Below, one piece after another: positions 15,939 to 32,573 of a stretch of 39,587 nucleotides of DNA. Position 1 is the first letter of the stretch. Each line of letters begins with the position of its first letter. A program made the translations under genes and the position numbers. This stretch comes from Oscillospiraceae bacterium (GTDB lineage Bacteria > Bacillota > Clostridia > Oscillospirales > Ruminococcaceae), in the NCBI GenBank assembly GCA_029098085.1, contig JAQXNQ010000167.1, positions 1-39,587 of the forward strand, given 5' to 3'. Under the pieces are notes generated by a model. It was given only the letters and a program-made list of their open reading frames with translations. It was not told where the DNA came from and did no database searches.

Positions 15939-16005
15939 TGATCCTGCTCCGGACATAGGCAAGGCCCTTGTCTGAACGACGACGGTGTGCCGACACTGAC
16001 GTATC

Positions 16006-16723: not shown

Positions 16724-16740
16724 GAAGGGAGACAACGATC

Positions 16741-17670
16741 ATGGAAGAAAAGCAGACGACGACCGCGGCAGAACAGCAGGCGACCGCAGAACAGCAGCCG
16801 ATGACGAAAGAGCAGTTGGAGGCCGCGATCAATTCCGCCCGCGCCAAGGAAACGTTTGCCAATGTTCTGATCATCGGCGCCGGTGCGGCGATGATCCTGA
16901 TGTTCTACCTGAAAAAGATTCCTCTGGCTATTCTCTTTCTGCTGCTCCTGCTGGTGGGCGGGTATCTGTGGGGCAAGAGTGCCGGTGTGGCCAAAAAGCT
17001 CCTCAGCGAGAATGTCGTCAGCGGCGTGCTGAGGGAGGCACTGGGCGATGCGGTGGAATATAACCCGTGGGGCAAAATAAACCCTGGCAGCATGGTGTTT
17101 CCGTTCTCCTATAACAGCGCAAGCGGCAGCGACCATATCAAGGCCAACTACCATGGACTGAACATTGAACTGGGCGACATCGAGCTGATGGATGAGACAG
17201 AGGTCAGAGACGAAGACGGAAACACGTCTACGCGCAAAGATACGGTCTTTAAGGGGCAGTGGCTTATCTGCGACTTCGGCAAGGAACTGGTCGGTCAGGT
17301 GTATATCTCCGAGTGGACCAAAAAGGACCGCAGAAGTATGAAGAGCAATGTCACGATGGATAACGAGCAGTTCAGCAAGCGCTTCTGTGTCAGAGCGGAT
17401 AATCCGCAGGAAGCCTACTACATCCTCACACCGCACATGATGGAATACATTACCGCCATGGCGGACAGGAGCGGCGGCACGGTCTACATGTCTTTCCTGC
17501 GGGACGGCAAGATGCACGTTGCGGTTAAGACCGGGCGTGACTTCTTTGAGCTTGGAAATAAAAATGCCAATGTGGAAGAGCTGCACCAGAAATTTTTGGG
17601 TGAGCTGCGCTGGTTCACCGATATCGTCGACGCGCTGCGCGTGGAGGATACTCTCTATAAGAAGGAGTGA
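16741..17670 (+). CDS. Membrane protein, DUF3137-like (family assignment tentative; typical LemA neighbour)
   Basis: ATG lies 8 nt after GGGAGA and 18 nt after the LemA-frame TGA. The product has two N-terminal TM helices and then a soluble domain (..YNPWGKI...F.YNSASGSDHIKANYHGLNIELGDIEL...VFKGQWLICDF...FCVRADNPQEAYYILTPHMMEYI). Confidence 0.7.
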   Translation: MEEKQTTTAAEQQATAEQQPMTKEQLEAAINSARAKETFANVLIIGAGAAMILMFYLKKIPLAILFLLLLLVGGYLWGKSAGVAKKLLSENVVSGVLREALGDAVEYNPWGKINPGSMVFPFSYNSASGSDHIKANYHGLNIELGDIELMDETEVRDEDGNTSTRKDTVFKGQWLICDFGKELVGQVYISEWTKKDRRSMKSNVTMDNEQFSKRFCVRADNPQEAYYILTPHMMEYITAMADRSGGTVYMSFLRDGKMHVAVKTGRDFFELGNKNANVEELHQKFLGELRWFTDIVDALRVEDTLYKKE

Positions 17671-18049: not shown

Positions 18050-18721
18050 TCAGTGCCGGAATAGAGAGCGGATCAGCCAGATGATGACCCAAATGATCAG
18101 AATGCCGGGAATCAGCGCTATGAACAGATTCAAAATGGCGTTTGCAATTACAAACCGCTGGCTCCACACATACATCAAAAACAGCACCACACCCACCACC
18201 ATCATGATCCGCCAGAACAGACCCCAGTTGAACGCCTGCGGCCAGCTGCTGCCCCGGAGTCGGCGTGCCGGCCGTACCGTCGCGCGCACCTGACGCGTGT
18301 ATTCATCCAGGGCTCTGTTCATATCGTCCTGTTCTGCCCGGGCAGAGGGGCCGGGAGCGACCTGTTCCGGTATGTGCGCCCGGGTGGAGGACTGCTCATA
18401 CTGTCCAAAAAAGCCTTCCTCTTCCAGCGGAGGGATGGTCGGCGTTGGAGGAAGATTGGTTTGAGGCTGCGGCCCGGACACGGGCGCCGGGTGGGTTTTG
18501 CCGGTTTCATCGGTGTGCTGGGCACGGAAGGCTTTGTCCAGTGCGCTGTAAAAGTCGTCCTGCGCATCGGCTTGCAGCTGCACGCCGGGGGCGGGACAGT
18601 AGCCCAGAGCCTGCAGGGCGGAATTCGGCCTGCTGTCGCTGTTTATGGGGCCACCGCACACGGGACAGTTTTTGTGGGGCCGGTCAAAGAGGTATTCACA
18701 GTAATTGCAGAAATGGGCCAT
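18050..18721 (-). CDS. Zinc-ribbon protein with a Pro/Gln-rich linker and two C-terminal TM helices
   Basis: The N-terminus is MAHFCNYC..x11..CPVCGG (CxxC...CxxC). It has a long low-complexity P/Q/A-rich middle. The C-terminus carries WGLFWRIMMVVGVVLFLMYVW and ILNLFIALIPGILIIWVIIWLI. It is the last gene of the minus-strand operon. The RBS is AAGGAG. Confidence 0.7.
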   Translation of the reverse strand: MAHFCNYCEYLFDRPHKNCPVCGGPINSDSRPNSALQALGYCPAPGVQLQADAQDDFYSALDKAFRAQHTDETGKTHPAPVSGPQPQTNLPPTPTIPPLEEEGFFGQYEQSSTRAHIPEQVAPGPSARAEQDDMNRALDEYTRQVRATVRPARRLRGSSWPQAFNWGLFWRIMMVVGVVLFLMYVWSQRFVIANAILNLFIALIPGILIIWVIIWLIRSLFRH

Positions 18722-18760
18722 ACAAAAATCTTCTCCTTCGTTCGACTGTTTGACAGGGAT

Positions 18761-20017
18761 TCAGGGCAGCACCTGTCCGATGAGAATGGGGATATCGTAC
18801 AGACCGCCGCACAGCACCGCGCCGTCCTGCAGCTGCACCAGCTCCTGAGCATTGATGTTGTGTTCCGTCACCTCGCGGATGCCCACGCCCCGGGCGCGGA
18901 CCGGGAAGATGTGGAACGGCTGCCAGTGGCGATCCCGGTGTTCCTCCCGCACCAGTCGCTGGTAGGTGCCCAATGCTTCCGAAAAAGGGCTGGCCTGCTG
19001 GGTGCTGGTGCAGCGGAACAGCAGCACCTCCTGATGTTCCGCAAGCAGGGGGGACAGCTCGTCTGTCCCGGCGATTACATAGGAAAGGTCACCGGCCAGA
19101 ATGCCGGTGGAATAGCTGGCGGTTTCGTGGGGGCCGGTGAACAGGCTGCGCAGCTCGGGGCTGGCGGTCAGCGGCACCTCGGCCGCCAGCAGCAGAAAAG
19201 GAATGCGGGCATCCTGCAGGGCTTTCAGCTCCTGATACAGATACCGCAGCACGGTCGGCCGGGCAGTGGGCACCGTGACACTGATGACGCACCGCTGCCG
19301 TACCGCCTCCACAATGCTGATGCAGGGATGGGCGGCAAAGCTCCGGGGTGTCCACAGGAATTCCTCCATCTCGTTGGCAAAGGAGCGGACTGCCGCATAC
19401 ACCTCTTTGGGCGCGTCATTCTGGGCCAGCAGCGTTGTGACCGACTCCCGGCCGGGACTGGGCAGATACTGCAGCACCTGCCGCTGCAGCCGGTCAGGGG
19501 GCATTTCCGCCAGTTGGAGCAGCAGATCCAGGTTGAAGGGGTAGCGCCCAAACGGAGCCGGGCTGCGTCTGAACTGCAGCTGCATGATGTCCAGATACGC
19601 CTGCAGCCAGCTGCGCAGGTTCAGCGCCGAGCTGGTACCGTAGCCTCTGCCGTCGATGGGCACGATGGCGTCCAGCACACCGGTGGCGTTCAGTCCGTAC
19701 AGCGGGTCGTAGTAGCGCTGGGGACTGCCGAAGGGATTGACGCTGTAGGTGCGGAAGCCCGGGCTTTGCCGGGCCAGTTCCGGCATGTCCTCCCGCAGAC
19801 GGCCCAGCGCGGCAGCCAGCAGCGGATCATTTTGCAGCACCACCACGCCCATCCGTCCGCAGCAGCGGCGTACGGCCTGGAGGCCGGCCATCCGGCGCTG
19901 GTGTGGATCACCGCAGAATGCTGCAAAGCTGGCACCCCAGTTTTCCGGGGGCAGAATCTCACCGATGCTGCGCCGACGCACATACTGCGCGCTGCGGGTA
20001 TAGTTGATATGGGCCAT
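18761..20017 (-). CDS. Hypothetical protein; apparent catalytically dead paralog of the upstream T4CP-like ATPase
   Basis: ATG lies 7 nt after GAGGTG. There is no GxxGxGK(T/S) motif and no hhhhDE motif. The C-terminal half still parallels the neighbour. Examples: PFLLLAAEVP versus HLFLDELKLLP, EVLLFRCTSTQQASPFSEALGTY versus SVFTFRLNDASSRRYVSELYGTN, and AQELVQLQDGAVLCG versus WDLMQLQPGHAVVG. Confidence 0.6.
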   Translation of the reverse strand: MAHINYTRSAQYVRRRSIGEILPPENWGASFAAFCGDPHQRRMAGLQAVRRCCGRMGVVVLQNDPLLAAALGRLREDMPELARQSPGFRTYSVNPFGSPQRYYDPLYGLNATGVLDAIVPIDGRGYGTSSALNLRSWLQAYLDIMQLQFRRSPAPFGRYPFNLDLLLQLAEMPPDRLQRQVLQYLPSPGRESVTTLLAQNDAPKEVYAAVRSFANEMEEFLWTPRSFAAHPCISIVEAVRQRCVISVTVPTARPTVLRYLYQELKALQDARIPFLLLAAEVPLTASPELRSLFTGPHETASYSTGILAGDLSYVIAGTDELSPLLAEHQEVLLFRCTSTQQASPFSEALGTYQRLVREEHRDRHWQPFHIFPVRARGVGIREVTEHNINAQELVQLQDGAVLCGGLYDIPILIGQVLP

Positions 20018-20031
20018 CAGATTTCACCTCA

Positions 20032-21378
20032 TTATGTGGATGCGGGGTCCCGCATGAAATAAAAGGGGAAGGGCAGCTCCTGGGAGGCCAGTCCCACCAC
20101 AGCGTGTCCCGGCTGCAGCTGCATCAGATCCCAGTCCTCCACCGTGTGTCCCTCCCGCTCCCGGTCCAGCTGCTGACCGCCCGCATTCTGATAGCGGTAG
20201 GCCGTCAGGTTGGTACCGTACAGCTCAGACACATAGCGGCGGGAGGAAGCGTCGTTCAAACGGAAGGTAAACACCGAACCAAATCCGGCCAGAATATCCT
20301 GTCCCACATCCTCGCCGTAGGCGGCGTGAATCTGACTCACACTCTGCAGTCCGGCCACGACGCTCACCCGCTTGCTGCGGCCAAAGTTCAGGGCGTCCTC
20401 CAGATGCTGCAGCCGGGGCAGCAGCTTCAGCTCATCCAGGAAAAGATGCACCCGGCCGTTGGGCTGACCGCCCAGCGCTTCTTTCAGCGCCAGGTCAATC
20501 AGCAGGCGGTAGACGGGAGCCAGGCTTTCGCCCACCGACAGGTCGTATAAGATAAAAACTGCGCGGCCTCCCTTTTTTCGCACCGCCTGCCGGATGGAAA
20601 ATTCCTGCTGCCCAGCCCGGGCCCGTCCGGCAAAGCTGCCCTGAAAACACTCGTACACCATGCTGCGAAGCTCCGCCATCACGCCCAGAGCCTGATGGCT
20701 GGTGCCGTCTCCCACATAGGAAGAAAGGCCCTGCAGGTCGGGATAAAGGCTGAAGAACTTCATCAGCTGCCGGGCGTCGTAGTGCAGCAGAAACCGGGTG
20801 AGAAATTCGTTGTTGAGGTTGTCCTTCCAGGCGGCGGGACTGTCGGTGCGGCGCCGGATGAAATAGATCAGGGTTGCGGCAAAGAGGTCGCGGGCTGCCT
20901 TGGCAAAGAAGGGCTGTGTCTGGGAGCCGCGGTCGCGAAAATACACAGCCGCGATTTCCCGGGCGTTGCTCTCATAGTCGCGGGGATCGGGGCCGTCGGC
21001 CAGCACCTCGAGGAACAGGTTCCACACGGCGCTGCGGCTGCGGTGGGCGCGGTCGTTGGCGATGACGATGTCGCCGGGGCGGAAAAAACCCGGATGACTG
21101 ATGTAGTCGGCCTTGGTATCGAAGATCAGCGAAATGCTGTCCTCGCCGCCCGCATCGGCCCACCGGCGCGCCTGTGCCACGATCTGATTCATGACATTGG
21201 TCTTGCCGCTGCCTGCGCCGCCCAGCAGCAGAATGTTTTTGAAGACGGTGGGTTCATCCACCGCAACGGTCAGGGCACTGGAAGCGTCCTTGAAGAAATA
21301 GCGCGGCGGCTCACCGGATGGCCGGTATCTGCACTGCTCCAGGAAATTGCCGTAAAGCGCCTGTTTGTGTGTGATCAT
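20032..21378 (-). CDS. VirD4/TraG-like (type IV coupling protein-like) P-loop ATPase without an N-terminal TM anchor
   Basis: ATG 21378 lies 9 nt after AAAGGAG, which overlaps the upstream stop. The longer ORF to 21486 overlaps the upstream gene. Walker A is GGAGSGKT (nt 21199-21222). Walker B is HLFLDE (nt 20431-20448). T4CP-like blocks are LIFDTKADY, FFAKAARDLFAATLIYF and GRSKRVSVVAGLQSVSQIHAAYGED. Confidence 0.8.
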   Translation of the reverse strand: MITHKQALYGNFLEQCRYRPSGEPPRYFFKDASSALTVAVDEPTVFKNILLLGGAGSGKTNVMNQIVAQARRWADAGGEDSISLIFDTKADYISHPGFFRPGDIVIANDRAHRSRSAVWNLFLEVLADGPDPRDYESNAREIAAVYFRDRGSQTQPFFAKAARDLFAATLIYFIRRRTDSPAAWKDNLNNEFLTRFLLHYDARQLMKFFSLYPDLQGLSSYVGDGTSHQALGVMAELRSMVYECFQGSFAGRARAGQQEFSIRQAVRKKGGRAVFILYDLSVGESLAPVYRLLIDLALKEALGGQPNGRVHLFLDELKLLPRLQHLEDALNFGRSKRVSVVAGLQSVSQIHAAYGEDVGQDILAGFGSVFTFRLNDASSRRYVSELYGTNLTAYRYQNAGGQQLDREREGHTVEDWDLMQLQPGHAVVGLASQELPFPFYFMRDPAST

Positions 21379-21391
21379 GCCGATCGCTCCT

Positions 21392-22717
21392 TTAGTCCAT
21401 GTCCCGACCACCGTCTGCGCCGTCCATGCCGCCGCCCAGGCCGGAGCCGTCATCCGACATTCCACTGCCCAGACTGGAGCCGTCATCCGACATTCCGGTG
21501 GTATTGCTGCTCAGTCCGGCACCGTCATCCGACATTCCGCCGGTGCCGCCGTCCAGGCCGGAGCCGTCATCCGATATTCCGATGCCGGTGATGCCGCCGC
21601 CCATCGTTTCGGTAGAACCTCCGTTCAGGTCAGCGCCGTCGTCCATCATTTCGGCGGTGTCGTTCAGGCCAGCGCTGTCATCTGCCAGTACGGCGCCGCC
21701 ATTCAGTCCGGAGCCGCCGTCCACCATTCCGGTACCGTCGATGTTCAGTCCGGTGGTACCGTTGTTCAGACTGGCACCGTCGTCCGATGGCACGCCGGTG
21801 GTGTTGTTCAGTCCGGCGCCGTCATTGGACAGCACGCCGGTGGAATTGTTCATACCGATGCCGGTCGTCTGCAGCCCGCTGGTGTCCTGACCGGTCGGGT
21901 TCTGACCTTCGGTATGCTGCTGTCCGGCGTCCGGCAAAGAAACGATGTCCGGAGTCTGGGCGGAACCGGTACGCGACTGGCCCAGGTTATAGCTGTCGCA
22001 CAGAGCGTTTATGGCAGTGTAGCTGGGGGAGGGGCTGCTGCGCTGGATGCCGTGATCCCGGTCATAGATTACCTGTGCCAGCGTTTTTTCAATGTCGGGG
22101 TCATTATAGTTGGTGGCCGCGCACTGCAGCGCAGCCTGGAAGGAATCGTTGCGCACCGTGGTCAGATAGTCGGCGGTCTGCGGATCGATCTGGCCGGACG
22201 CTTTCTGCACGGCGTCGATGGCCTGCAGCGTGTTGAACTGCCCGGCGGCGAAGGCCTCCTTCTCATCGTGCTGGATGCGGTAGAGATCCATGTCCTGTTC
22301 GGGAGAAATGTAGGTTGCTGCCGCCCGCCCCTGAGCCACCTGAATACCGTGGGTGCCTTCGTGGAACATGGTGTCCAGCACGTTCCAGTTGGCTGCGCTC
22401 ACCGGCGTTCGAACCAGAATGTCGTTGCCCTGCTGGTCTACATCCTCTGTCAGGAAGTAATTTCCCTGCATCAGATAAGCGTTCAGACAGATGGTACTGC
22501 CGGATTGTTCGCCATAACAGCCGCCGATCATCGGTCGGGCTGTCACCCGGCAGGGGCTCACGCCGTTGGCTGCCGCGTAGCGGTTCTCCACCTCCTGACA
22601 GGCGTCCATCTTATCCGAAAAAGACATCTGATTCCAGGAATCTGTGCGAAATAACCCGAACAGCTGAGTTTGATTCAGAGAAGCATAGCGGGTGGGATAT
22701 GCGTTGGCTGCCATCAT
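21392..22717 (-). CDS. Zincin-like metallopeptidase domain protein (HExxH) with a long C-terminal Asp/Gly-rich repeat tail
   Basis: AAGGAGG lies 2-5 nt before the tandem ATG ATG (22717/22714). HEGTH is at nt 22349-22363 (FHEGTHGIQ). The N-terminal approximately 230 aa look globular. The C-terminal approximately 190 aa are degenerate repeats of the type (M/V/I)SDDG(A/S)GL(N/D/S).. and end in GGMDGADGGRDMD. Stop is TAA. Confidence 0.75.
   Translation of the reverse strand: MMAANAYPTRYASLNQTQLFGLFRTDSWNQMSFSDKMDACQEVENRYAAANGVSPCRVTARPMIGGCYGEQSGSTICLNAYLMQGNYFLTEDVDQQGNDILVRTPVSAANWNVLDTMFHEGTHGIQVAQGRAAATYISPEQDMDLYRIQHDEKEAFAAGQFNTLQAIDAVQKASGQIDPQTADYLTTVRNDSFQAALQCAATNYNDPDIEKTLAQVIYDRDHGIQRSSPSPSYTAINALCDSYNLGQSRTGSAQTPDIVSLPDAGQQHTEGQNPTGQDTSGLQTTGIGMNNSTGVLSNDGAGLNNTTGVPSDDGASLNNGTTGLNIDGTGMVDGGSGLNGGAVLADDSAGLNDTAEMMDDGADLNGGSTETMGGGITGIGISDDGSGLDGGTGGMSDDGAGLSSNTTGMSDDGSSLGSGMSDDGSGLGGGMDGADGGRDMD
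21399..21960 (-). repeat. Degenerate in-frame tandem repeats (period about 33-42 nt) encoding the D/G-rich tail
   Basis: On the + strand, GGAGCCGTCATCCGACATTCC (or a variant with 1-2 mismatches) is found at 21443, 21476, 21518 and 21560. Weaker copies continue to about 21950. Confidence 0.8.
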
Positions 22718-22724
22718 AACCTCC

Positions 22725-23027
22725 TTATCTGCGCAGGATCAGAGCACGGCCGTTCACGGCGTCTTTCAGATATGCGTCCATCAGGGTCAGGGCAGTAAAG
22801 TAGCTGCGGCCCGGCCGCATTCGCTGGATCTGGATCACCGAGAACTCGCCCTGGCGGAAGTTCGCCGTCTCGCCGGTATCCAGATAGCTGCGCAGCAGGG
22901 CGTCCAGCCGCGCGTCCATCGTGTCATGATACTCCTGTGCCCGCTGCTGCACCGCCTGGGGAGCCCAGAACGGGTGCTCCCGGGTAAGCAGGGCCTCCAA
23001 TTCTTTCTGTGTCACCAATTGCAGCAT
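22725..23027 (-). CDS. Small (100 aa) cytoplasmic protein, first gene of the minus-strand operon (hypothetical; possible chaperone, immunity or adaptor role)
   Basis: ATG 23027 lies 8 nt after GGAGAG. The longer ORF to 23375 runs across the divergent promoter region and the XRE gene start, so it is not credible. Its stop TAA overlaps the AAGGAGG RBS of the zincin gene. Confidence 0.6.
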   Translation of the reverse strand: MLQLVTQKELEALLTREHPFWAPQAVQQRAQEYHDTMDARLDALLRSYLDTGETANFRQGEFSVIQIQRMRPGRSYFTALTLMDAYLKDAVNGRALILRR

Positions 23028-23157
23028 GGAATTCTCTCTCCTTTCTTTTGCTTCAATTATAACAGGGAAGAGTTTTGAATGGAATCGGCAAAAGCGACAA
23101 ACCGGATATGCAATTTCACACAACATCAATAAATTTGATAATTCTTCATAAAACATC

Positions 23158-23185
23158 TTGCTTCTTCGTGTAAAAGTGGTAGAAT
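23158..23185 (+). promoter_or_regulatory. Sigma-A-type promoter candidate for the 10-gene plus-strand operon
   Basis: TTGCTT (23158-23163), then a 16-nt spacer, then an extended -10 TGgTAGAAT (23177-23185). It lies about 45 nt upstream of the GTG start at 23230, within an AT-rich intergenic region. Confidence 0.5.
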
Positions 23186-23229
23186 GGAGGTATAAGAAAT
23201 GCAGTATGTACATGGGAGGAGATGGTACA

Positions 23230-23595
23230 GTGAGCGAAAAAGAGCTTGTCCAGGAAATCATCATCCTGCGCGGCCGACGCGGCTGGACCCAGCAGGAGCT
23301 GGCGAACCGCATCGGTACGACCCAGCGGACGGTGGCTGCCTGGGAATCGGGCAATTCGATTCCCCGCAAGGCCATGCGGGTGCGGATCGCACAGGCATTT
23401 GAGCTGCCGGATGATTATTTTCTTGGGAATCTATTGACAGATACAAAGAGTACAGCTGAAAAGAGTGCGGCAAAAGAACAACAGGATACCGCTCAGCTGC
23501 TGGATAAGTTCAGTTCAATGCTGGACAGCGAGGGCCTGTCGGACGAGAAAAAGACCATGCTGCTGGATTCGGTCAGCGAGATCCTGCAGAAATAA
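23230..23595 (+). CDS. XRE-family helix-turn-helix transcriptional regulator
   Basis: GTG 23230 lies 8 nt after GGAGGAG. The HTH is RGRRGWTQQELANRIGTTQRTVAAWESGNSIPR. It is followed by a short helical C-terminal region. Stop is TAA. Confidence 0.85.
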   Translation: MSEKELVQEIIILRGRRGWTQQELANRIGTTQRTVAAWESGNSIPRKAMRVRIAQAFELPDDYFLGNLLTDTKSTAEKSAAKEQQDTAQLLDKFSSMLDSEGLSDEKKTMLLDSVSEILQK

Positions 23596-23623
23596 CAGGA
23601 AAACAACAAGGAGGAACCTTACC

Positions 23624-25174
23624 ATGGAACCGATTATTGCGCTGGATTTTGGAAACTGTTATTCGTTTCCCTGCTATATTCCCGAGCTGGACATCTCTGT
23701 CAGCCGCCTGGGAGGCAAGCCGGTGGACCTGCTGCCCAGTGATATGCACTACGGCTATCCCAGCGTATTCTTCTATTCCCGGCGGGCAGCCGAGCGCTGC
23801 CGGAAGAATGGACAGCAGCTGCCGCCCTGGTGCGGTGCTGACGCGGTGAAGGCCAAGGCCTCTCCGGAGGGCAACCGGGTGCGCAACCTCAAGCGCCATC
23901 TGGGAGAGCCACTGGTGCTGGACGACTGGAAAGGCAGCTATGACGATGCCATCGTTCAGCTGATCCAGTATCTGATGCGCCGAGCCAACGAGGTGCTGCG
24001 CACCGAGGCGCTGGTCACCACCCACCGGCTGGCGCTGTCCCATCCGGCCACCTACACCCTTTCCCAGCGCATCCATCTGAAAAACCTGGCCGAGCAGGCC
24101 ACACTGGAGGACGGCACCCACATCCAGGTGGTGGGGATGATTGATGAGCCGGCCGCCGCCGCTCTGGATTATCTGGTGGAAAACGGCCGCGGCGACCAGG
24201 ACACCACCGTGCTGGCCTATGATCTGGGAGGCGGCACCTTTGATCTGGCCATTGTGTCGGCCTATCCCCAGGGGCGCACCAGCGCTTCCGGCAATCCCTA
24301 TTATTATCGCGTTGAGAAGACGGGCGGCATCTCCAGTCTGGGCGGCTCGGACTTTGATGAGGTCATGCTGCAGCTGCTGAAGGCCAGGATTCCCGCTTCA
24401 AAGCCGGTAGACGAGGATTCGCTGCGCCGGCTGGCTGAAACGGCCAAACTGGAGCTCAGCCGCGACCCCGACACGGAGCAGGAGATCTACACCAAGTCCG
24501 GCGAGGCACTGTTCGTTACCGTCACCCGGCAGGAATTTGAAAAGGCAGCGCTGCCGCTGGTACAGCGTACGGTGGAGGAAACCCGCCAGATGCTGAAGGA
24601 GTACAGCGGCAAGCAGCCCGAGCTGCTTGTGCTGACCGGCGGCGCCAGCCAGATGCCGATGGTGCAGCGAGAGCTGGAAAAGGCCTTTCCTCAGTTTAAG
24701 GGTCACATCTGCCTCTACCGTCCCAGCAGGGCCATCGCCTACGGCGCCGCCCGCTACAATACGCCTCTGGAAGAGAACTGTGTGCAGCGGTGCGTTCCCC
24801 GCGATATCGGGATCCGCTATTATCATGGCAACAGCGACAAGAAGTATGTCGAGACCTATATCCCGGCCGGTACAGAGCTGCCTTTTGCCAGTGCATACGA
24901 TACTTCCACGACCCGGGGACCGGATGTTCAGTTCTCCTACTTCGCGGTGATGGAAGCCAAAGTCAGCCACCCGGACCAGGAAGCCCCCGACCGTGACTAT
25001 ACCGAGATCCTGTCGGTGACGCTGGATCATGGCAGACCGGTGCCGCAGGGTACCCCGTCCGAGGCCCGGCTGGTGCTGGATCAGAACGGCCTGCTGAGCG
25101 TGGAGGCGCGCGATCCTTCCAAGCCGGATAAGCCCCCGGTCAAAAACAGCTGCACATTGAAGAATCTGAGCTGA
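23624..25174 (+). CDS. Hsp70-family ATPase A (actin-fold NBD plus beta-sandwich SBD-like region, no helical lid)
   Basis: ATG lies 8 nt after GGAGG. Motifs are IALDFGN (phosphate-1), EPAAAALDY, DLGGGTFD (nt 24221-24244), GGSDFDE and LVLTGGASQMPMVQREL (adenosine motif). The C-terminal approximately 130 aa resemble SBD-beta (RDIGIRY...IPAGTELP...LVLDQNGLLSVEA). Confidence 0.85.
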   Translation: MEPIIALDFGNCYSFPCYIPELDISVSRLGGKPVDLLPSDMHYGYPSVFFYSRRAAERCRKNGQQLPPWCGADAVKAKASPEGNRVRNLKRHLGEPLVLDDWKGSYDDAIVQLIQYLMRRANEVLRTEALVTTHRLALSHPATYTLSQRIHLKNLAEQATLEDGTHIQVVGMIDEPAAAALDYLVENGRGDQDTTVLAYDLGGGTFDLAIVSAYPQGRTSASGNPYYYRVEKTGGISSLGGSDFDEVMLQLLKARIPASKPVDEDSLRRLAETAKLELSRDPDTEQEIYTKSGEALFVTVTRQEFEKAALPLVQRTVEETRQMLKEYSGKQPELLVLTGGASQMPMVQRELEKAFPQFKGHICLYRPSRAIAYGAARYNTPLEENCVQRCVPRDIGIRYYHGNSDKKYVETYIPAGTELPFASAYDTSTTRGPDVQFSYFAVMEAKVSHPDQEAPDRDYTEILSVTLDHGRPVPQGTPSEARLVLDQNGLLSVEARDPSKPDKPPVKNSCTLKNLS

Positions 25175-25205
25175 CCACAGGCTGACAGGAAAGGTGGTTT
25201 TCCAA

Positions 25206-26792
25206 ATGTACGATATTTTTGGCTGCGACATCGGCAACGGGTTCGCTTTTGTGTCGCTGATCCCCGGGCCGGACAGCGATGCCCAGCCCATGCTGCCGGT
25301 TTCCCGCGACCTGAACCCCAACGAGGGGATGCCCACTGCCGCCTATGTCACCCCGCCCGGCGCCGACCCCATTCTGGTGTACGATGCCGACAGGGGAACG
25401 GCCGCCCGCAGCATCCGCCGGGATCCGGCCCACGGTGTGCGGGCGGTGAAGACTCACCTGCGCCGGGCCGCCCTGGAGATGGATGGGCTGGACAGCCCGC
25501 TGTCGCCCTACGCCGTCTACGGCGCGGCGGCCCGGGATCTGGTGCGGCTGGGCAACCTGCAGCGGGCTGCGGACGGCCTGCCTCCTATCTACCGGCTGGT
25601 GCTGACCTATCCGGCGGCCTTCTCCAATTACAGCGACGAGCTGGAGATTCTCAACCGGATGCAGGCGGCGGTGGAGGCGGTCAGGCTGGATGACCATCCG
25701 CTGCAGGTGGTCGGCCGTCTGCCCGAGCCGGCAGCGGTGGCCATCGATTATCTGTACTATATGCAGCATCAGCTGCCCGAGGACCAGAGATTGAAAGACG
25801 ACCAGTTTACCGTACTGGTGTTCGATCTGGGCCATGGTACCTTCGACGTGGCCGTTGTCACGGCCCGCAGCAAGGGCGAGCCCTATCAGGTATGGGCCAG
25901 CGATGGGCTGCCCGACGTGGGCGGAAAGGATTTTGACGCCCGCCTGATGGATGAGCTGCTGGAGATGATGCAGCAGGAGGGCTATCAGCTGCGGGATGCG
26001 CAGGAGCGGGAGGAGCTGCTGCGCGAAGCGGTGGCTGCCAAGCATGAGCTGTCCCGTGACGAGGAGGCCGTTGTCCGTCATCAGAATCGCCGGAACGGTT
26101 CGTATATGGAGCTGACCATTACCCGTGCGCGGTTTGAGGAGATCACCCGCGACCTGCTGCTGCAGGTGGTGGAAAAAACCCAGCAGATGCTGCAGGATCA
26201 GCTGGCCCGCGGCCGAACGGTGGACAGCATCGTCCTGTCGGGCGGCGCCAGCCAGATGCCGATGGTGCGCAGGGCACTGGAGGCCTATATCCAGCCGGCC
26301 GTGCCGGTGCAGCCCCCGTTCCGCCCCAGCAGAGCCGTGTCCTTCGGCGCTGCCCGCTATGGGCTGGGGCTGTCTGTACAGAAAAGCGAGGGCAGGAAGA
26401 AGGAAAAAGACCCCACACCCGCTCCGCCCAACCCGGTGGCTCAGCTGTACACCAGGCATTCCTACGGCGTGCTGGTGGAAACGGCCGACGTGATGGAAGG
26501 GAAGGTTCAGATCCTGCTTCCTGCCGAAACGCCGCTGCCCGCCACCGCCACTTTGGAGGAGTACTGGACCGGCAGAGGGCGGATGGACTGCCGCGTCTAC
26601 CGGCCCCGCACTCGCACCAAGGTCAGGGTTCTGGAGCCCGACAAATGTGTGAACCTGAGATGGCTGCACTTTGATCTGCCGCCGGACACCTATCGCCTGA
26701 CCCTTACAGTGGATCCCAACTATAACATCATTGCCAGGCTGGAGGGCAGAAACGGCACCGTCCACACCGCCAGCACGGCCGAAGAAACCTGA
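25206..26792 (+). CDS. Hsp70-family ATPase B (divergent paralog of A, also lidless)
   Basis: ATG 25206 lies about 9 nt after AGGAAAGGTGG (GTG 25194 is an alternative). Motifs are GCDIGNG, EPAAVAIDY, DLGHGTFD (nt 25824-25847), GGKDFDARL and IVLSGGASQMPMVRRAL. The SBD-beta-like C-terminus includes HSYGVLVE...LLPAETPLP...LTLTVDPNYNIIARLEG. Confidence 0.85.
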   Translation: MYDIFGCDIGNGFAFVSLIPGPDSDAQPMLPVSRDLNPNEGMPTAAYVTPPGADPILVYDADRGTAARSIRRDPAHGVRAVKTHLRRAALEMDGLDSPLSPYAVYGAAARDLVRLGNLQRAADGLPPIYRLVLTYPAAFSNYSDELEILNRMQAAVEAVRLDDHPLQVVGRLPEPAAVAIDYLYYMQHQLPEDQRLKDDQFTVLVFDLGHGTFDVAVVTARSKGEPYQVWASDGLPDVGGKDFDARLMDELLEMMQQEGYQLRDAQEREELLREAVAAKHELSRDEEAVVRHQNRRNGSYMELTITRARFEEITRDLLLQVVEKTQQMLQDQLARGRTVDSIVLSGGASQMPMVRRALEAYIQPAVPVQPPFRPSRAVSFGAARYGLGLSVQKSEGRKKEKDPTPAPPNPVAQLYTRHSYGVLVETADVMEGKVQILLPAETPLPATATLEEYWTGRGRMDCRVYRPRTRTKVRVLEPDKCVNLRWLHFDLPPDTYRLTLTVDPNYNIIARLEGRNGTVHTASTAEET

Positions 26793-26812
26793 GAAGGAGG
26801 CAATGTTGCGAT

Positions 26813-28201
26813 ATGTCAAACTATTCCCATGCTTTGGATGCCCACAGCCGTTTCTGGAAGGATCCCAACCGCCGCAATCCCGGCTGCTGCAGAAATTTTT
26901 ACCGCAAGCTGTGGCAGGGCATTCTGCAGGACTATGAAGAATTCGGCCGCTGTGAATACATCGAGCGGCTGCTGAGCAGGTCCATTGTCAGTATCACCCG
27001 AGTGGAATTCAGCATACTGACAGGGATGGCGAAGGAGGAACCGTTCCTTGATCCTGATAGCCTGGACCGCATCCCCCATATCATCTACAGAGATGGATGG
27101 GGTCAGCGCGACGTTTTCTGGGAAGAGGGCAGTCTCGTTCAGGCCGTTAAGGAAACAGACCTGCAGAACGCCGGTATCATCCGCACCCGGCTCCGCGCCC
27201 AGGCGGCCATCCGTGACAGCAGGATCGACATTCCCATCGGTGGAGATACCCCATCCGCACAGGTTCCTCCGGTGCAGAAGAAAGAGGAGCTTCAGACCCA
27301 ACAAATGATCCGGCAGGCCGAGGCCCAGGCTCAGCAGCTGCTGACTGAGGCCCGGCAGGAGGCCGAGCGCATCCGCGCCGAAGCCGAGGCTGAACGGGCA
27401 CGGCTGAATGCTGACCACGCCGCGCTGCTGGCTGAGGCCCGGCAGGAGGCTGACCGCATCCGCTCCGAAGCTGAGGCTGAACGGGTGCAGCTGAATGCTG
27501 ACCGCGCCGCATTGCTGGCCCAGGCCGACAGTCAGGCCAGACAGCAGGCCCGGAATCTCATCACGCAGCATCTGGCCGATTACCAGCGCCAGATGCGCCT
27601 TCAGTGGGATCGTGACACCGCCGAGGCTGAGCAGCAGGATACCCGGGCGACTCAGGAAATCGACAGCGCCCGCAAAGAAATGTGCGGTACCGTCAACGAC
27701 CTGAAGGTCAGTTGGCGCACCGATCTGGAAAAGGCCATTGAGGAGATGCGCGGACTGCAGACCCAGCTGGAAACCCGTCTGCGCGACTGGCAGCGGGCCC
27801 TGTATCCCCGCGAGTTTGAGCCGCTGGCCGATTGCTACGTTCAGCTGTACCGCATCGTCAATCAGGATCGCCTGCTGGCTGACGCATTGACCGCGGAACA
27901 GGGCGGCGGCAGCAACTATCAGCTGCTGGAACAGCTGAGCAGGTCGCTGTCTGTATTCCTGCGCAAATTTGCCAAAGCCATGGGCCGTCTGGGGCTGCAG
28001 GTGTATGTGCCTGCTGTGGGCGAGCCTTACGATGACGTGCTGCAGGCACCGGACGGCGATGAGCCTGACGATGCGTTTGACAGGACCGTGGCGGAATGTC
28101 TGGTGCCCGGTGTGGTGTACCAGCTGGAAGGCAAACAGGAAGAGGGCGATCCGATCATTCGCGCCGTTGTGCGCCTTGCGCCCGGATCCGGGGAGGAGTA
28201 A
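26813..28201 (+). CDS. Coiled-coil protein with a GrpE-like C-terminal domain (putative nucleotide-exchange factor for the Hsp70 pair)
   Basis: The central part is an E/A/R/Q-rich coiled coil. The C-terminus reads ..FLRKFAKAMGRLGLQVYVPAVGEPYDDVLQAP....VAECLVPGVVYQ....IIRAVVRLA. This parallels the E. coli GrpE pattern (..VVRKFGVEVI...PLDPNVHQAI....V..V.QKGY.LNGR.IRAAMV.V), recalled from memory. Confidence 0.6.
   Translation: MSNYSHALDAHSRFWKDPNRRNPGCCRNFYRKLWQGILQDYEEFGRCEYIERLLSRSIVSITRVEFSILTGMAKEEPFLDPDSLDRIPHIIYRDGWGQRDVFWEEGSLVQAVKETDLQNAGIIRTRLRAQAAIRDSRIDIPIGGDTPSAQVPPVQKKEELQTQQMIRQAEAQAQQLLTEARQEAERIRAEAEAERARLNADHAALLAEARQEADRIRSEAEAERVQLNADRAALLAQADSQARQQARNLITQHLADYQRQMRLQWDRDTAEAEQQDTRATQEIDSARKEMCGTVNDLKVSWRTDLEKAIEEMRGLQTQLETRLRDWQRALYPREFEPLADCYVQLYRIVNQDRLLADALTAEQGGGSNYQLLEQLSRSLSVFLRKFAKAMGRLGLQVYVPAVGEPYDDVLQAPDGDEPDDAFDRTVAECLVPGVVYQLEGKQEEGDPIIRAVVRLAPGSGEE
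27347..27520 (+). repeat. Tandem 87-nt (29-aa) duplication inside the GrpE-like coiled coil
   Basis: Nt 27347-27433 encode EARQEAERIRAEAEAERARLNADHAALLA. Nt 27434-27520 encode EARQEADRIRSEAEAERVQLNADRAALLA. Confidence 0.9.
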
Positions 28202-28204
28202 GTT

Positions 28205-29161
28205 ATGGCATATTCCGGTTATCAGGCTGCGGCCCTGTACGACTTTACCCATCATATGCGGCAGGACAACCTGTCCTTCCCGGTTACCGAGCTGGTGATC
28301 GATGCCGACCGGTGTGCCCTGGGAATCTGCCGCTGTGACGAGGGCGGCGGCATCGCTTTGCTGGAGCAGGCGGAATTGTCCCAGCCCGCGCCGCTGGATC
28401 AGCTCTGGCTGGAGCAGATTGCTGCCGGCTGCGGCGTTTCCGCCCGGGAGGCGGCCGGCCTGCCGGATGAGGCGCAGGCCCAGACCCGTTTGTGGAACTA
28501 CTACTGCGCCGGACGGCGCTCCGACGCTCCCGCCTTTTCGCTGCCGGACGGCCGCACCCTTTGCTGCAGCCAGCTGGATGCAGCTTTTGCTCCGGTGCAG
28601 GCACTGCTGGATCAGCTGTTGGAACAGGGGCTGCAGCTGCTGGAGCGGCTGCACATCCCCGAAGAGCAGCTGCGCATCCTGACTGTTGGCCGGATGGCCG
28701 ACTGCGCGCCTGTCCGGCTGACACTGCGCGGGCAGCTGTGCTTTGACCCCTTCCTGCCGGATGACCGCTTCGTGGCTCTGCGGGCAGACGAGGATCCCGG
28801 CCGCATCGTGGAGGAGGGAATGCGGCTGCACCAGCAGACCCAGATGATAGGGATCGAGCTGGATCTGCTCTGCACCGACGCTTCCGGTGCAGAGGAGGTT
28901 CTCTGTCTGGCCCGGAGCCAGCAGCTGGCCTCCGCCCTGTCCGATCCCCATTACTGTCCGCCGGTTTTTGTGTCGGCGTCCGAGCCGCTGCGCTTCCGTA
29001 CGGGCGGCCGGGTATGGGAGCAGCCGCTGCCCTACGCAATCGGCCCGCTGGACGGTGACCTGGTGGAGGCAGCCTGCGTTGTGCGGGCCGGCCGGCCGCT
29101 GATTCTGCTGCGCCGAACCCTCGCCCCCACCCGGGTTTATGAGGTGCAACCGCAACTGTGA
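28205..29161 (+). CDS. Hypothetical protein (possibly a degenerate actin-fold/ASKHA-like domain; weak)
   Basis: ATG lies 6 nt after GGAGGAG and 3 nt after the upstream TAA. LVIDADRCALGICRCDEGGG is reminiscent of a phosphate-1 hairpin. RILTVGRMADCAPVRLTL is reminiscent of the Hsp70 adenosine motif. No confident family assignment. Confidence 0.6.
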   Translation: MAYSGYQAAALYDFTHHMRQDNLSFPVTELVIDADRCALGICRCDEGGGIALLEQAELSQPAPLDQLWLEQIAAGCGVSAREAAGLPDEAQAQTRLWNYYCAGRRSDAPAFSLPDGRTLCCSQLDAAFAPVQALLDQLLEQGLQLLERLHIPEEQLRILTVGRMADCAPVRLTLRGQLCFDPFLPDDRFVALRADEDPGRIVEEGMRLHQQTQMIGIELDLLCTDASGAEEVLCLARSQQLASALSDPHYCPPVFVSASEPLRFRTGGRVWEQPLPYAIGPLDGDLVEAACVVRAGRPLILLRRTLAPTRVYEVQPQL

Positions 29162-29175
29162 AGGGAGAAACCAAC

Positions 29176-30390
29176 ATGAATAACCGTCAAAAAAAGCTCC
29201 TGAGCCAGCAGCTTCTGGCTCAGGCCAAGGCGCTGGAGCAGCAGGAGGGCCCCCAGCTGGCTGTTTCGGTGACCGCCGCCTGCAGCGCGCTCCTGAAGGC
29301 GGCGAGTGCTGACGTTGAAACGATGGATCCGGCGTCTTTTGAGAATCTCTACGCCAGTTTTTCCCGTCTTGCCCAGCAGACCGAGGCGTTCTTTGAGGGC
29401 GCTCAGGTCCGGCTGCAGGCCGGGGTGCAGACTCCCGGGCAGGAGCTGTCTGACAAACGGCAGCAGGTCGAACAGCTGCGCGCCCGGTTGGAGGCGGCTG
29501 ACCAGGCCGTTCAGGAGCTGGAACACCGACTGGCTGATGACCGGGCCCGGCTGGAAGAGGCTCAGAAACGGATGACCGACGCAGAGGAAGCCCACAGCGC
29601 CCTGTGCAGGCTGCTTGACGACTGCTCGGACGAAAAGATCGCAGCCCGGCTGGCCGGGAACGAACAGCTCAAAGAGCGCTTTGCCGAGGCCAACCTGCGT
29701 ATGCACACCCTGACTAACGAACATGACCGGCTGCTCCGGCAGCTCCATGAGATCGAAGCCGACATGGAAAAGATACCCCAGCAAAACCGCGAGCTGGTGG
29801 AGCGCTGCGGCGAACAGGAAAAGCTTCTGGAGCGCCTGCGCAATGCTTTTGAAATCTACAGTCCTGAAAAGCAGGCTGAACTCCAGAAGGAGATTGACAC
29901 GCTGAGCGCGTCGGTGGAGGAAAACCAGCAGGCGGCGCAGCTGCTGAAGAGCCGTCTGGATGATCTGCAGGCTCAGCACACGGAATATGATGCCGCCCGC
30001 CAGACCCTCAGCACCAACCTTCTGGATTTGCTGCAGCGCTCGATGGGCGATTTGCAGACCGCGCTGGATGACCACGAAGAAAAGCTGAGCACCATCCGCA
30101 CCCAGGCCGAGACCCTGACCGGCCGGCTTGCCGCCTGTCTGGAGACCCGCCGCCGCTGCAGCGACTGGCTGGATGCCGACATCACGCCGCTGGAGGCGAT
30201 GATCCGGGCGGTGGACCGGCCCGAGGCCGCCGAGCTGCGCCGGACGCTGGATCCCGGCAGCATCCATCAGGTTCAGCAGTTGTACACAGAGATCGAGCAG
30301 CGGCTGCAGCAGCTGGACGACATCCTGAGAAAATGCACCGATGCTGTGCGTTTGGATCAGGGTGCGCTGGATAAGCTGGCTCGCCGCTGA
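29176..30390 (+). CDS. Long coiled-coil protein (hypothetical)
   Basis: ATG 29176 lies 8 nt after GGGAGA. The approximately 400-aa product is Q/E/L/R/A-rich with heptad character throughout (for example QVEQLRARLEAADQAVQELEHRLADDRARLEEAQKRM). Stop is TGA. Confidence 0.7.
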   Translation: MNNRQKKLLSQQLLAQAKALEQQEGPQLAVSVTAACSALLKAASADVETMDPASFENLYASFSRLAQQTEAFFEGAQVRLQAGVQTPGQELSDKRQQVEQLRARLEAADQAVQELEHRLADDRARLEEAQKRMTDAEEAHSALCRLLDDCSDEKIAARLAGNEQLKERFAEANLRMHTLTNEHDRLLRQLHEIEADMEKIPQQNRELVERCGEQEKLLERLRNAFEIYSPEKQAELQKEIDTLSASVEENQQAAQLLKSRLDDLQAQHTEYDAARQTLSTNLLDLLQRSMGDLQTALDDHEEKLSTIRTQAETLTGRLAACLETRRRCSDWLDADITPLEAMIRAVDRPEAAELRRTLDPGSIHQVQQLYTEIEQRLQQLDDILRKCTDAVRLDQGALDKLARR

Positions 30391-30414
30391 CACGCCGGAA
30401 AGCAGGAGAAGGGC

Positions 30415-31011
30415 ATGAGCATCATCTACTATCACATGAAAGAGCCGGCTGTGGATGTTCTGGGCCCCGGCAGGCGGTTCGTGCTGTGGGTGCAGGGCTG
30501 TCACAAAAACTGCCCCGGCTGTGTGGCGGGCGGTACCCACCGCATGGAGGACGGCAAGCCGGTTCAGACCGACGCGCTGGCCTGGGAGATTGCTCTTTCG
30601 GGGGCGGAGGGGCTGACCATCAGCGGGGGCGAGCCGTTTTTGCAGGCTCCCGCGCTGGCCCAGCTGCTTCAGGCGGTGCACCGCATCCGCCCGATGGGGG
30701 TCATCGTCTACACCGGCTACCGGTATGAGGAATTGCTGGCCATGCCGCAGGCAGCCGGGCTGCTTGCGCAGACCGACCTTCTGATCGACGGCGAGTACAT
30801 CCAGTCCCTCGACGACCACCGGGGTCTGCGGGGCTCGTCCAACCAGCGGGTGATCCCGCTTTCTGATGTTTATCGTGAAATCGCCCGCCAGTATGCGGAT
30901 ATCCCGCGCAGACAGCAGGTCTTTTATCATGGGGCGGAGATCCATGAGGTGGGTCTGCCCGACGAACATGGAGCCTATCCCGAGCAGGAGAAAAGGAGCG
31001 TTACAAAATGA
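30415..31011 (+). CDS. Radical SAM protein of the anaerobic RNR-activase (NrdG-like, 4Fe-4S single-cluster) type
   Basis: VLWVQGCHKNCPGC gives a CxxxCxxC motif (nt 30499-30522). A LTISGGEPF SAM-binding motif is present. The size (198 aa) and the tail ..IDGEY......GLRGSSNQRV fit the small glycyl-radical activase family. Its stop overlaps the next start (ATGA). Confidence 0.8.
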   Translation: MSIIYYHMKEPAVDVLGPGRRFVLWVQGCHKNCPGCVAGGTHRMEDGKPVQTDALAWEIALSGAEGLTISGGEPFLQAPALAQLLQAVHRIRPMGVIVYTGYRYEELLAMPQAAGLLAQTDLLIDGEYIQSLDDHRGLRGSSNQRVIPLSDVYREIARQYADIPRRQQVFYHGAEIHEVGLPDEHGAYPEQEKRSVTK

Positions 31012-32543: not shown

Positions 32544-32573
32544 CCTTTCACATTCTACCAATAAGGTGATCGC

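Follow-up and report, generated by a model that had tools for sequence, protein, structure and literature searches.

A soluble coupling-protein-type ATPase beside an acidic-tailed zincin: a candidate effector-translocation module in an Oscillospiraceae bacterium and its relatives with interchangeable toxin heads

Type IV coupling proteins (TrwB of R388, VirD4, TraD, Cag-beta) recognize their substrates through unstructured C-terminal signals. Here we describe a unit of five minus-strand genes (g1 to g5, 18050-23027, with intergenic gaps of 7, 13, 14 and 39 nt) in which a relative of these ATPases stands beside a putative zincin metallopeptidase with an acidic tail. The unit lies in a contig of an Oscillospiraceae bacterium (GenBank assembly GCA_029098085.1, contig JAQXNQ010000167.1, positions 1 to 39,587; these 39,587 nucleotides are referred to throughout as the window). 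The product of g3 resembles the coupling proteins in their cytoplasmic part and its motifs, and that of g4 resembles them in fold. Unlike the coupling proteins, g3 has no N-terminal transmembrane (TM) domain and no relaxase or VirB-type channel was found in the loci; the module instead has an adjacent protein effector with an acidic tail and – in the loci that carry the window-type g1-g5 unit, hereafter the window clade – an apparently inactive paralog of the ATPase. All functional statements below are drawn from sequence, predicted structure and gene neighborhood.

Several described systems share part of this arrangement. Coupling proteins that lack a TM domain and work with a separate membrane protein are a recognized class, exemplified by TraJ/TraI of pIP501, where the soluble ATPase is thought to be brought to the membrane by its partner (PMC7431656): g3 and g5 would act alike. 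The pIP501 pair, however, is part of a full conjugative type IV secretion system (T4SS), whereas g5 is a zinc ribbon with a C-terminal TM hairpin. In CoCoNuT systems, TM-less ATPases of the FtsK/HerA type (EssC-like or VirB4-like), with inactive modules, form semi-autonomous cassettes appended to conflict operons for Hsp70-like and SpoVK-type AAA+ proteins (PMC11090510); the present module differs in the clade of its ATPase, in having a zincin effector and a zinc-ribbon TM partner, and in being without the McrBC/CoCoNuT core, vWA and WXG100. By analogy (in part after PMC11090510) the module may also be likened to type VIIb secretion (EssC, LXG toxins), with its FtsK/HerA-superfamily ATPase and degenerate modules, partners of about 100 aa, interchangeable toxins with immunity, and FHA and kinase genes nearby. 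Its ATPase nevertheless falls in the coupling-protein clade and not in that of EssC, there is no match to WXG100, EssA/B or EsaA, and its signal would be C-terminal and acidic, with toxin heads N-terminal or central. The PVC-metallopeptidases (DUF4157) of toxins of extracellular contractile injection systems and PVC resemble g2 in combining an N-terminal HExxH zincin with variable toxin domains, and their loci are often without a downstream immunity gene (PMC3482391); unlike them, g2 has no Pfam match to DUF4157 and no contractile-injection genes accompany it. Because other heads replace the zincin in the sister systems described below, the zincin is taken to be an effector head and not a trafficking tag. 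Resemblance to the MADS system is confined to g3, which matches mad8 (6e-16, the sole PADLOC match of the unit) at the level of the shared P-loop domain, the remaining MADS genes being unmatched. The GTPase/tubulin/Hsp70 systems (PMC7159879) and the S8-PTS system (PMC9424270) were also considered, and are different systems. No description of the module was found in the literature on Hsp70, VirD4/TraG/type IV coupling proteins, polymorphic toxins, zinc ribbons and novel secretion: the module is a variant of coupling-ATPase substrate recognition and of polymorphic-toxin systems that is apparently undescribed.

Our reading, to which we give an even chance, is that the genes form a module of immunity protein, effector, coupling ATPase and membrane anchor that translocates tail-tagged effectors. 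A membrane-tethered relative of the coupling ATPases probably handles the zincin effector by way of its acidic tail, and most likely exports it. Export is favored because of the polymorphic-toxin repertoire of the family, the immunity-type partner, the common C-terminal signature and the membrane and cell-wall neighbors; the tail is favored as the signal because an acidic tail with a C-terminal motif is the family-wide constant upstream of the ATPase. What we infer, by contrast with the protein identities, predicted folds, gene order and C-terminal signature that were observed, are the physical interactions, the assembly of g3 and g4 into a ring, where and in which direction the effector would be moved, what the zincin acts on and any functional tie to the Hsp70 operon.

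Table 1. Features of the five-gene unit and its divergent neighbor in the window.
Feature	Position	Strand	Basis
g1: 100-aa soluble protein	22725..23027	-	Open reading frame, GGAGAG ahead of ATG
g2: putative zincin, 441 aa	21392-22717	-	HExxH = H119-E-G-T-H123
g2 head: predicted zincin-like metallopeptidase domain, residues 1-245 (H119ExxH123, E152)	21983..22717	-	Alignment and model
g2 tail: 196-aa acidic Gly/Asp-rich disordered repeats, end ...GGRDMD; proposed recognition signal	21392..21982	-	
g3: TrwB/VirD4-type coupling ATPase, 448 aa, no TM domain	20032..21378	-	Pfam, PDB, motifs
g4: predicted catalytically degenerate coupling-fold protein, 418 aa	18761..20017	-	AlphaFold and Foldseek
g5: N-terminal zinc ribbon, low-complexity linker, two C-terminal TM helices, 223 aa	18050..18721	-	
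Shared divergent intergenic, putatively regulatory region between g1 and XRE gene	23028..23229	.	Sequence read
Linked divergent operon (context, outside the five-gene unit)	23230..38706	+	Pfam

All five open reading frames (ORFs) are present at the coordinates given by the first-pass annotation of the window, whose anatomy of the unit stands. This holds in particular for g3, which had been described as a VirD4/TraG-type ATPase with intact Walker A and B motifs and no TM anchor. The longest ORF of this gene (20032-21486, 484 aa) begins 108 nt too early and reaches into g2; the start was placed at the Met at 21378, where all homologs begin. Pfam assigns TrwB_AAD_bind (3.2e-38, residues 80-426 of the 484-aa ORF), TraG-D_C (1.5e-16) and T4SS-DNA_transf (5.4e-12), and a search of the PDB returns TrwB at 1.3e-13 with an alignment that spans the entire cytoplasmic part of TrwB; the NCBIfam matches, to TraD and to CD1115-type VirD4, are both well below cut-offs. 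Walker A reads GGAGSGKT at residue 53 and Walker B reads LFLDE at 315-319 (in the string RVHLFLDELKL, which begins at residue 312), while the GR arginine-finger region is intact. A hydrophobic segment was looked for and none was found: the N-terminal TM domain of coupling proteins is absent. g3 is thus a homolog of the catalytic part of coupling proteins, with a RecA-like nucleotide-binding domain and an all-alpha domain, but it departs from the conjugative class in two defining respects: it has no TM domain, and neither a T4SS nor a relaxase was found linked to it. Its family is uniform in length (all 440-458 aa) and large: over 120 clusters share ≥49% identity, and a threshold of E≤1e-10 takes in 1100 proteins. 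Its homologs carry NCBI names such as type IV secretion or conjugative transfer protein.

The effector candidate g2 divides into a folded head and a disordered tail. In the head, H119, E120, H123 and E152 are invariant across 27 sequences of the g2 family, and HExxH is retained in nearly all of 143 distant representatives. The AlphaFold model (predicted local distance difference test score, pLDDT, 91.7) has the zincin layout, in which a beta-sheet is followed by the HExxH helix and then by a helix with the Glu, the downstream ligand expected of a gluzincin-type metallopeptidase. No Pfam family matches at E≤1 and none in NCBIfam, PHROG or PADLOC; a profile search of the PDB with the g2 alignment found nothing. 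Foldseek comparison of the model with the PDB gave a best E of 0.5, which is not significant, with SPRTN and jannalysin among the weak matches, and comparison with BFVD gave weak matches to SprT-like phage proteins (E 3e-3 to 5e-2). On its invariant residues and predicted layout the head is probably a divergent, active-looking zincin: the assignment made by the first-pass annotation is supported by motif and model, and the profile searches that it proposed did not place the head in a Pfam family. The public gene call for g2 (P0032, 411 aa) starts 30 codons late relative to homologs.

The tail had been reported as approximately 190 residues rich in D and G, and this is accurate: of residues 246-441 (196 in all), 26% are Gly and 14% are Asp, and acidic residues outnumber basic ones by 30 to 2. 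They include seven [DN]DGxxL units, encoded by DNA with tandem repeats of periods 33 and 42 nt, and in the AlphaFold model pLDDT is below 50 from residue 248 onward. Across the family the tail varies from 63 to 200 aa in length and is net acidic in every member compared. Window-clade tails repeat DDGxGL internally and end in variants of G-[MIL]-[DE]-x (GGRDMD here).

The evidence that such tails mark interchangeable effectors comes from a sister clade, defined as relatives of the ATPase type found at loci L018-L021. A scan with the sister ATPase gave at least 398 metagenomic relatives, for which 80 loci were fetched; genes in these metagenomic loci were called with a crude, simple ORF picker, assignments of TM segments and zinc ribbons were heuristic, and the enrichment P-values that follow are indicative only, the sister loci being related and not phylogenetically independent. 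In L018/L019 and L020 the order is a g1-like gene of 100 aa, an effector, a soluble coupling ATPase and a zinc-ribbon protein (g1-like hidden Markov model, HMM, 1e-12 to 1e-13; ATPase of 432-439 aa, HMM 1e-108), the zinc-ribbon protein of L020 having a C-terminal TM segment; L021 stops inside the ATPase gene, and its gene at the g1 position was missed by the first g1 profile. Across the sister loci the gene directly upstream of the ATPase is a variable effector. The zincin head occurs in 21 of the 80, in 19 of these at position -1, and the other heads include Endonuclea_NS_2 (9e-17), WHH/Colicin-DNase (2e-13) and Ntox15 (2e-28), the rest being without a Pfam match. These effectors have long acidic repeat tails whose extreme C-terminus approximates D-Y-Y-Y-G-[YIM]-[GS]-[YM]: an acidic stretch over the last 60 residues together with at least two Y/F/W/M in the last six was found in 23 of 42 effectors vs 6 of 394 other proteins of the same loci (P~1e-21). 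The window-clade tail may be a diverged form of this Tyr-rich signal.

The same pattern emerges from the head itself. A profile of the zincin head recovers 488 clusters at E≤1e-3 in 1.84 billion representatives, and nearly all are a head with an acidic low-complexity tail (15-43% Asp+Glu, few basic residues); long members insert a toxin domain between head and tail, among them Tox-GHH (2e-19), Endonuclease_NS (4e-6) and RelA_SpoT (1e-5), and it is on contigs of such long members (L018-L021) that the gene order given above was read. The wider family thus combines a conserved, presumed trafficking region with swappable toxin domains, which is the mark of polymorphic toxins, while the window copy carries the zincin only. 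No N-terminal secretion domain (LXG, WXG, RHS, PVC) was detected with Pfam: heads are N-terminal or central and the acidic tail is C-terminal. The first-pass annotation had proposed the zincin as the protein exported by the module; what it had missed is that the zincin is one of several interchangeable heads, the others being nucleases, Ntox15 and RelA_SpoT.

Two effectors without a Pfam match (L072 7550-9979 and L096 1687-4590) have a block in common (…YR(S/V)F(G/D)G…SDGS(Y/F)(W/F)TTEKP…GQELPGG…) that, by eye, recalls motifs of ADP-ribosyltransferase toxins.

The position at -2 in the sister loci is informative for g1. An extended g1 HMM finds 16 sister loci, in 12 of which the gene lies directly upstream of the effector and in 14 of which the zincin head is present (Fisher P 7e-9). 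In L085 the -2 gene encodes a SUKH-1 immunity protein (9e-11), and the effector, which has no Pfam match, shows a GHH-like motif by eye and is a probable nuclease. The sister -2 gene looks like an immunity gene. In the window g1 occupies, relative to the effector, the slot of an immunity gene, and the occurrence of g1-like genes goes with that of the zincin head; g1 is kept in all window-clade loci and has no match in Pfam, NCBIfam, PHROG or PADLOC. Because its position matches the SUKH slot of L085 and because it co-varies with the head, g1 is likely the cognate immunity protein, or inhibitor, or else a chaperone, of the zincin head. The TAA stop of g1 directly abuts GGAGGTT, the ribosome-binding site (RBS) of g2, which is followed by the g2 ATG: the overlap of stop and RBS noted earlier is essentially right, and the immunity-type position had gone unremarked.

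Recurrent neighbors of the sister systems are two Ser/Thr kinases, FHA-TM and PrsW-FHA proteins, a zinc-ribbon M48 protease, an Amidase_3 cell-wall hydrolase, TldD/PmbA and GRAM-like proteins with four TM segments; such sets of envelope and regulatory genes are also found around type VI and type VII secretion systems. In L034 (1774-17122) and L072 (4278-15443) the sister systems lie inside large same-strand operons with kinases, FHA, M48 and Amidase_3, which suggests phospho-regulated, envelope-associated machinery. A protein with an N-terminal zinc ribbon and TM segment occupies position +1 of the ATPase in 13 of 32 sister loci vs 8 of 184 background genes (P 1e-7). Its counterpart in the window, g5, has C5xxC8...C19xxC22 and a hydrophobic C-terminus of 60 residues that is sufficient for two TM helices, as had been read from the sequence before; this architecture is kept in window-clade loci, and no match was found in NCBIfam, PHROGs or PADLOC. 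We propose that g5 is a membrane anchor or conduit. Neither g4 nor Hsp70 was found in any of the 80 sister loci; because both are missing there, the widespread core is an immunity-like gene, a tail-tagged effector, a soluble coupling ATPase and a zinc-ribbon membrane protein, and the window clade is a derived branch that has gained g4 and, except in Slackia, the Hsp70 operon.

The additional protein, g4, has no family match in Pfam, NCBIfam, PHROGs or PADLOC, and a profile search of the PDB with its alignment found nothing. The first-pass annotation called it a paralog of g3 that has lost both NTPase motifs and cited shared C-terminal sequence blocks. Loss of the motifs is borne out, and the paralogy can be shown by fold, though not by those blocks. 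BLASTP against g3 gives E 0.001 (23% identity over 214 aa of the C-terminal halves), and local hhalign of the two families gives E 0.29 with a probability of 0.2, which is not significant. Since sequence and profile comparisons are weak or not significant, the paralogy of g3 and g4 rests on the predicted fold. From 23 family members AlphaFold gave a model (pLDDT 89.9) whose entire length (approximately 450 columns) aligns with coupling proteins in Foldseek, with Cag-beta (8dol) at E 2.8e-11 and TrwB at 4.6e-9; HerA and VirB4 rank lower. In place of GxxGxGK[ST], the Walker A site has a conserved non-canonical FCGxxxQR (F31..C35-G36-x3-Q40-R41), a P-loop would not fit the short strand-to-helix loop of the model, no conserved acidic residue accompanies the Walker B strand (PFLLV), and the GR finger is replaced. 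By these features g4 is a coupling-protein fold that is predicted to be catalytically dead. That the residues of the degenerate site are conserved suggests that g4 still has some role there.

In distribution g4 is narrow. It is confined to the window clade, whether or not the Hsp70 operon is present, and is absent from the 80 sister loci and from L018-L021: it is a clade-specific addition outside the widespread core, a point absent from the earlier description of the five genes. The family comprises 31 clusters. Among 185,579 species genomes seven are carriers, three of them Slackia and one Flavonifractor sp. An92, the others being metagenome-assembled genomes (MAGs) labeled Acutalibacteraceae, Clostridia and Bacteroidaceae. 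In the type strain of Slackia equolifaciens, DSM 24851 (L010 10001-10792), g4 is shortened to 263 aa, while in the uncultured Slackia of L004 and L005 it has 415 aa; DSM 24851 may be losing the unit.

Taken together, a mechanism can be proposed. The product of g1, made just before g2, would bind the zincin head and either neutralize or chaperone it; g2 would be the effector, with the DDGxGL repeats and the C-terminal end of the tail as recognition signal. g3 would form an ATP-driven ring, in the window clade together with its inactive paralog g4 – a mixed active and inactive ring that may be likened to the ATPase modules of EssC. g5 would hold the ring at the membrane, with the zinc ribbon cytoplasmic and two TM helices that perhaps also provide passage, and the ring, gripping the acidic tail, would move the effector into or across the membrane.

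The unit is conserved well beyond the window. In a comparison of 13 independent loci (L001, L002, L004-L012, L014, L016, L017) the order g1-g2-g3-g4-g5 is held wherever the contig permits, at 35-77% identity, and the loci span Clostridia, Erysipelotrichia and Slackia. An operon with an XRE regulator and Hsp70-like genes is divergently adjacent in ten (L001, L002, L007-L009, L011, L012, L014, L016, L017), and in L006 g3-g4 are collinear with the first Hsp70 gene (Hsp70a), giving 11 Hsp70-linked loci of the Clostridia type in total. In Slackia L005 and L010 the Hsp70 operon is absent from the g1-side flank (in L004 just ~1.1 kb upstream of g1 is available, which cannot show such absence); around the unit in L010 lie genes for an MFS transporter, MaoC, a protein of the metallo-beta-lactamase fold and an acyl-CoA dehydrogenase. 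Because Slackia loci carry the unit without the Hsp70 operon, the five-gene unit is semi-autonomous, yet in Clostridia it is inherited in one block with that operon. The linkage to the Hsp70 operon on which the first-pass annotation built its co-regulated conflict system is therefore real in the 11 loci, and is not obligatory.

No conjugation genes were found in the window among the Pfam-scanned ORFs (those up to 38706 other than 11182-11757 and 13748-14311), in agreement with the first-pass annotation. Elsewhere, precomputed Pfam assignments for L001-L017 and scanned neighbors of L010, L034, L065 and L072 were used: no relaxase, VirB4, VirB6 or pilin gene is present in the flanks of window-type loci, and in none of more than 90 related loci was a gene of a T4SS, a relaxase or an integrative and conjugative element (ICE) encountered within 10 kb. 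The zincin head gave no tblastn match in 72,556 plasmids or 50,697 phages, and scans of IMG/VR with g4 and with the sister ATPase gave none. Conjugation machinery next to the unit, and a unit confined to this genome, had been named as findings that would overturn the earlier interpretation, as had a g4 product without homology to the ATPase; neither of the first two was encountered, and g4 proved to have the predicted fold of a coupling protein.

These results bear on what the module is. A decayed conjugative element whose leftover genes are drifting – the third hypothesis of the first-pass annotation – would account for the conjugative-transfer names of g3 homologs at NCBI and for the IS256-like transposase fragment at the edge of the island that holds the unit. 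It is scarcely credible for a unit whose five genes have kept their integrity, synteny and catalytic motifs across phyla at 35-77% identity, whose wider family shows the same logic in hundreds of members, and near which relaxase, VirB4 and VirB6 were not found; with flanks free of conjugation genes, no plasmid, phage or IMG/VR matches and a conserved unit, the reading as a conjugative or ICE fragment was rejected. It is also improbable, if less so, that g3 (with g4 and g5) docks tail-tagged effectors onto a T4SS encoded elsewhere, for instance in an ICE, for injection into recipients, as CloDF13-like mobilizable plasmids do with their own coupling proteins and Xanthomonas/Stenotrophomonas do with toxins. 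Antibacterial toxins delivered by T4SSs and recognized by VirD4 reportedly exist, and the cassette itself is without a channel. Coupling proteins can use heterologous T4SSs, and mobilizable CloDF13 encodes its own (PMC12857230, PMC7431656); canonical coupling proteins made TM-less by mutation are, on the other hand, non-functional (PMC7431656). The cassette moreover has conserved membrane partners of its own, and a recruitment cassette is hard to square with the lack of T4SS, relaxase and ICE genes within 10 kb at the more than 90 loci and of any match in 72,556 plasmids. An intracellular abortive-infection system, in which a membrane ATPase ring senses invading DNA or a phage protein and frees the effector from a g1-type antitoxin, with the Hsp70/AAA+-trypsin operon as regulatory or execution arm, is the main rival, and in our view a less likely reading than export. 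FtsK/HerA-superfamily ATPases occur in defense, g3 matches mad8 (6e-16) and SIR2-HerA appears in the Foldseek list of g4, but beyond mad8 the unit has no PADLOC match and no full system complement. An XRE regulator shares the GC-rich, apparently acquired island with the window module, and in L014 the module adjoins Fic, ATPase_2/DUF234 and a type I methylase; flanks are nevertheless mostly ordinary metabolic genes and not defense islands. A constant ATPase with variable effector heads is the grammar of many defense systems, soluble EssC-like or VirB4-like ATPase cassettes are attached to Hsp70-containing CoCoNuT systems (PMC11090510), and here the ATPase lies directly downstream of the toxin gene with no classical downstream immunity gene. 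Yet the effector domains are typical of secreted polymorphic toxins, with a SUKH partner in one locus, the C-terminal signature conserved on unrelated effectors resembles a transport signal, and peptidoglycan amidase and membrane partners recur.

The export reading has difficulties of its own. The window module has no obvious channel: a copy of g5 supplies just two TM helices, and canonical coupling proteins depend on a channel of the VirB type. The tail in the window ends in GGRDMD and not in the Tyr-rich motif of the sister effectors, so that equating the two signals is a matter of interpretation. g1 has no detectable similarity to any immunity family in Pfam, an immunity-like partner fits intracellular toxin-antitoxin logic equally well, and the zincin is without a significant structural neighbor (best E 0.5 with Foldseek against the PDB). 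Non-independence of the sister loci and crude ORF picking weaken the statistics, which are only indicative, and export does not explain the tight linkage to the Hsp70/AAA+/radical-SAM operon. Even so, handling or export of the zincin by a coupling protein that would read its C-terminal signal is the best supported of the three hypotheses of the first-pass annotation. A broader version of the export reading is offered more tentatively, and we doubt it more than we trust it: single-membrane bacteria would have in the wider family a protein secretion system that stands alone, in which a coupling-type ATPase without a VirB channel exports polymorphic toxins recognized by an acidic tail and a C-terminal motif of aromatic residues and Gly, the zinc-ribbon TM protein being the membrane component and the upstream gene providing immunity; the window would be a derived version with a pseudo-ATPase and coupling to Hsp70, AAA+-protease and radical-SAM proteins.

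The surroundings of the unit are distinctive in composition. GC content climbs from ~52% to 60-65% at ~18.0 kb and stays high until ~38.8 kb, and this GC-rich island contains just the five genes and the divergent operon. A C-terminal fragment of an IS256-like transposase (38879-39178, minus strand) lies just past its right edge; no tRNA was found at the island edge. It looks as if the two-operon system had been acquired as a single block. The left flank (69-17670) is ordinary low-GC Firmicutes chromosome, with genes for a 1431-aa surface protein with choline-binding, leucine-rich and Listeria-Bacteroides repeats and for transglutaminase-like, DUF2207, LemA-like and DUF3137 proteins.

Between the two operons the intergenic region shows one sigma-70-like site (plus strand, 23115-23142) and, as to operators, no convincing inverted repeat, just a weak one. 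The divergent operon encodes an XRE helix-turn-helix protein, two Hsp70-like proteins, a Fer4_12 radical-SAM protein, one coiled-coil and one RCC1-repeat protein, three proteins without a significant Pfam domain (one of them coiled-coil-like) and a 1690-aa protein with three AAA+ modules and a trypsin domain. The start of the XRE gene (23158-23595, plus strand) is ambiguous: the ORF runs from TTG 23158, an alternative GTG at 23230 follows GGAGG and gives 121 aa (homologs have 113-122 aa), and the best-spaced RBS belongs to an out-of-frame ATG at 23199. The radical-SAM gene (30415-31011, plus strand; Fer4_12, 1e-31; of activase/QueE-like size) lies between two coiled-coil genes and is kept in L001, L006, L011 and L017. 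In the 1690-aa protein (32574-37646, plus strand) the three AAA+ modules (AAA and AAA_lid_6 of CbbX/SpoVK type) precede a C-terminal trypsin-like protease, and the chain ends in a short acidic stretch (…AAEEEENNGSEN). The RCC1-repeat protein (37576-38706, plus strand) has an N-terminal CxxC..CxxC zinc ribbon; its ORF overlaps the end of the AAA+/trypsin gene by ~70 nt, which leaves its true start uncertain.

Individual loci depart from this plan. In L006 (276-12935) no g5 is present between g4 and Hsp70a, which is followed by Hsp70b, three genes and then those for the radical-SAM, coiled-coil and AAA+ proteins. Its MAG, labeled Bacteroidaceae, would be the only double-membrane host, a binning error being possible. 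In Flavonifractor sp. An92 (L008 6105-8567) g2 and g3 are separated by two extra genes, one for a 682-aa protein without a Pfam match and one for a helical protein of 129 aa. A third Hsp70-like gene lies upstream of Hsp70a in L012/L013 (5571-6737), where it sits between the regulator and Hsp70a, and in L016 (6616-8160; the locus of P0132, named by NCBI as a Catenibacterium mitsuokai MAG), where no regulator was identified.

Coupling proteins are seen as receptors that work only in a T4SS channel, and the family described here contradicts that picture. With hundreds of members in gut and environmental metagenomes, this ATPase family has shed its TM domain and left conjugative elements behind, and is now tied to interchangeable toxins, immunity-like genes and zinc-ribbon membrane proteins. 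Autonomous export, if shown, would count as a new type of secretion system: it would add a route of toxin delivery among gut Firmicutes and Actinobacteria and offer a simple system for how coupling ATPases read C-terminal signals. If the module acts inside the cell, it would represent a new class of conflict system, whose link to the Hsp70/AAA+ operon would have to be explained. Either way, five proteins hitherto annotated as hypothetical or as 'conjugative transfer protein' gain testable roles.

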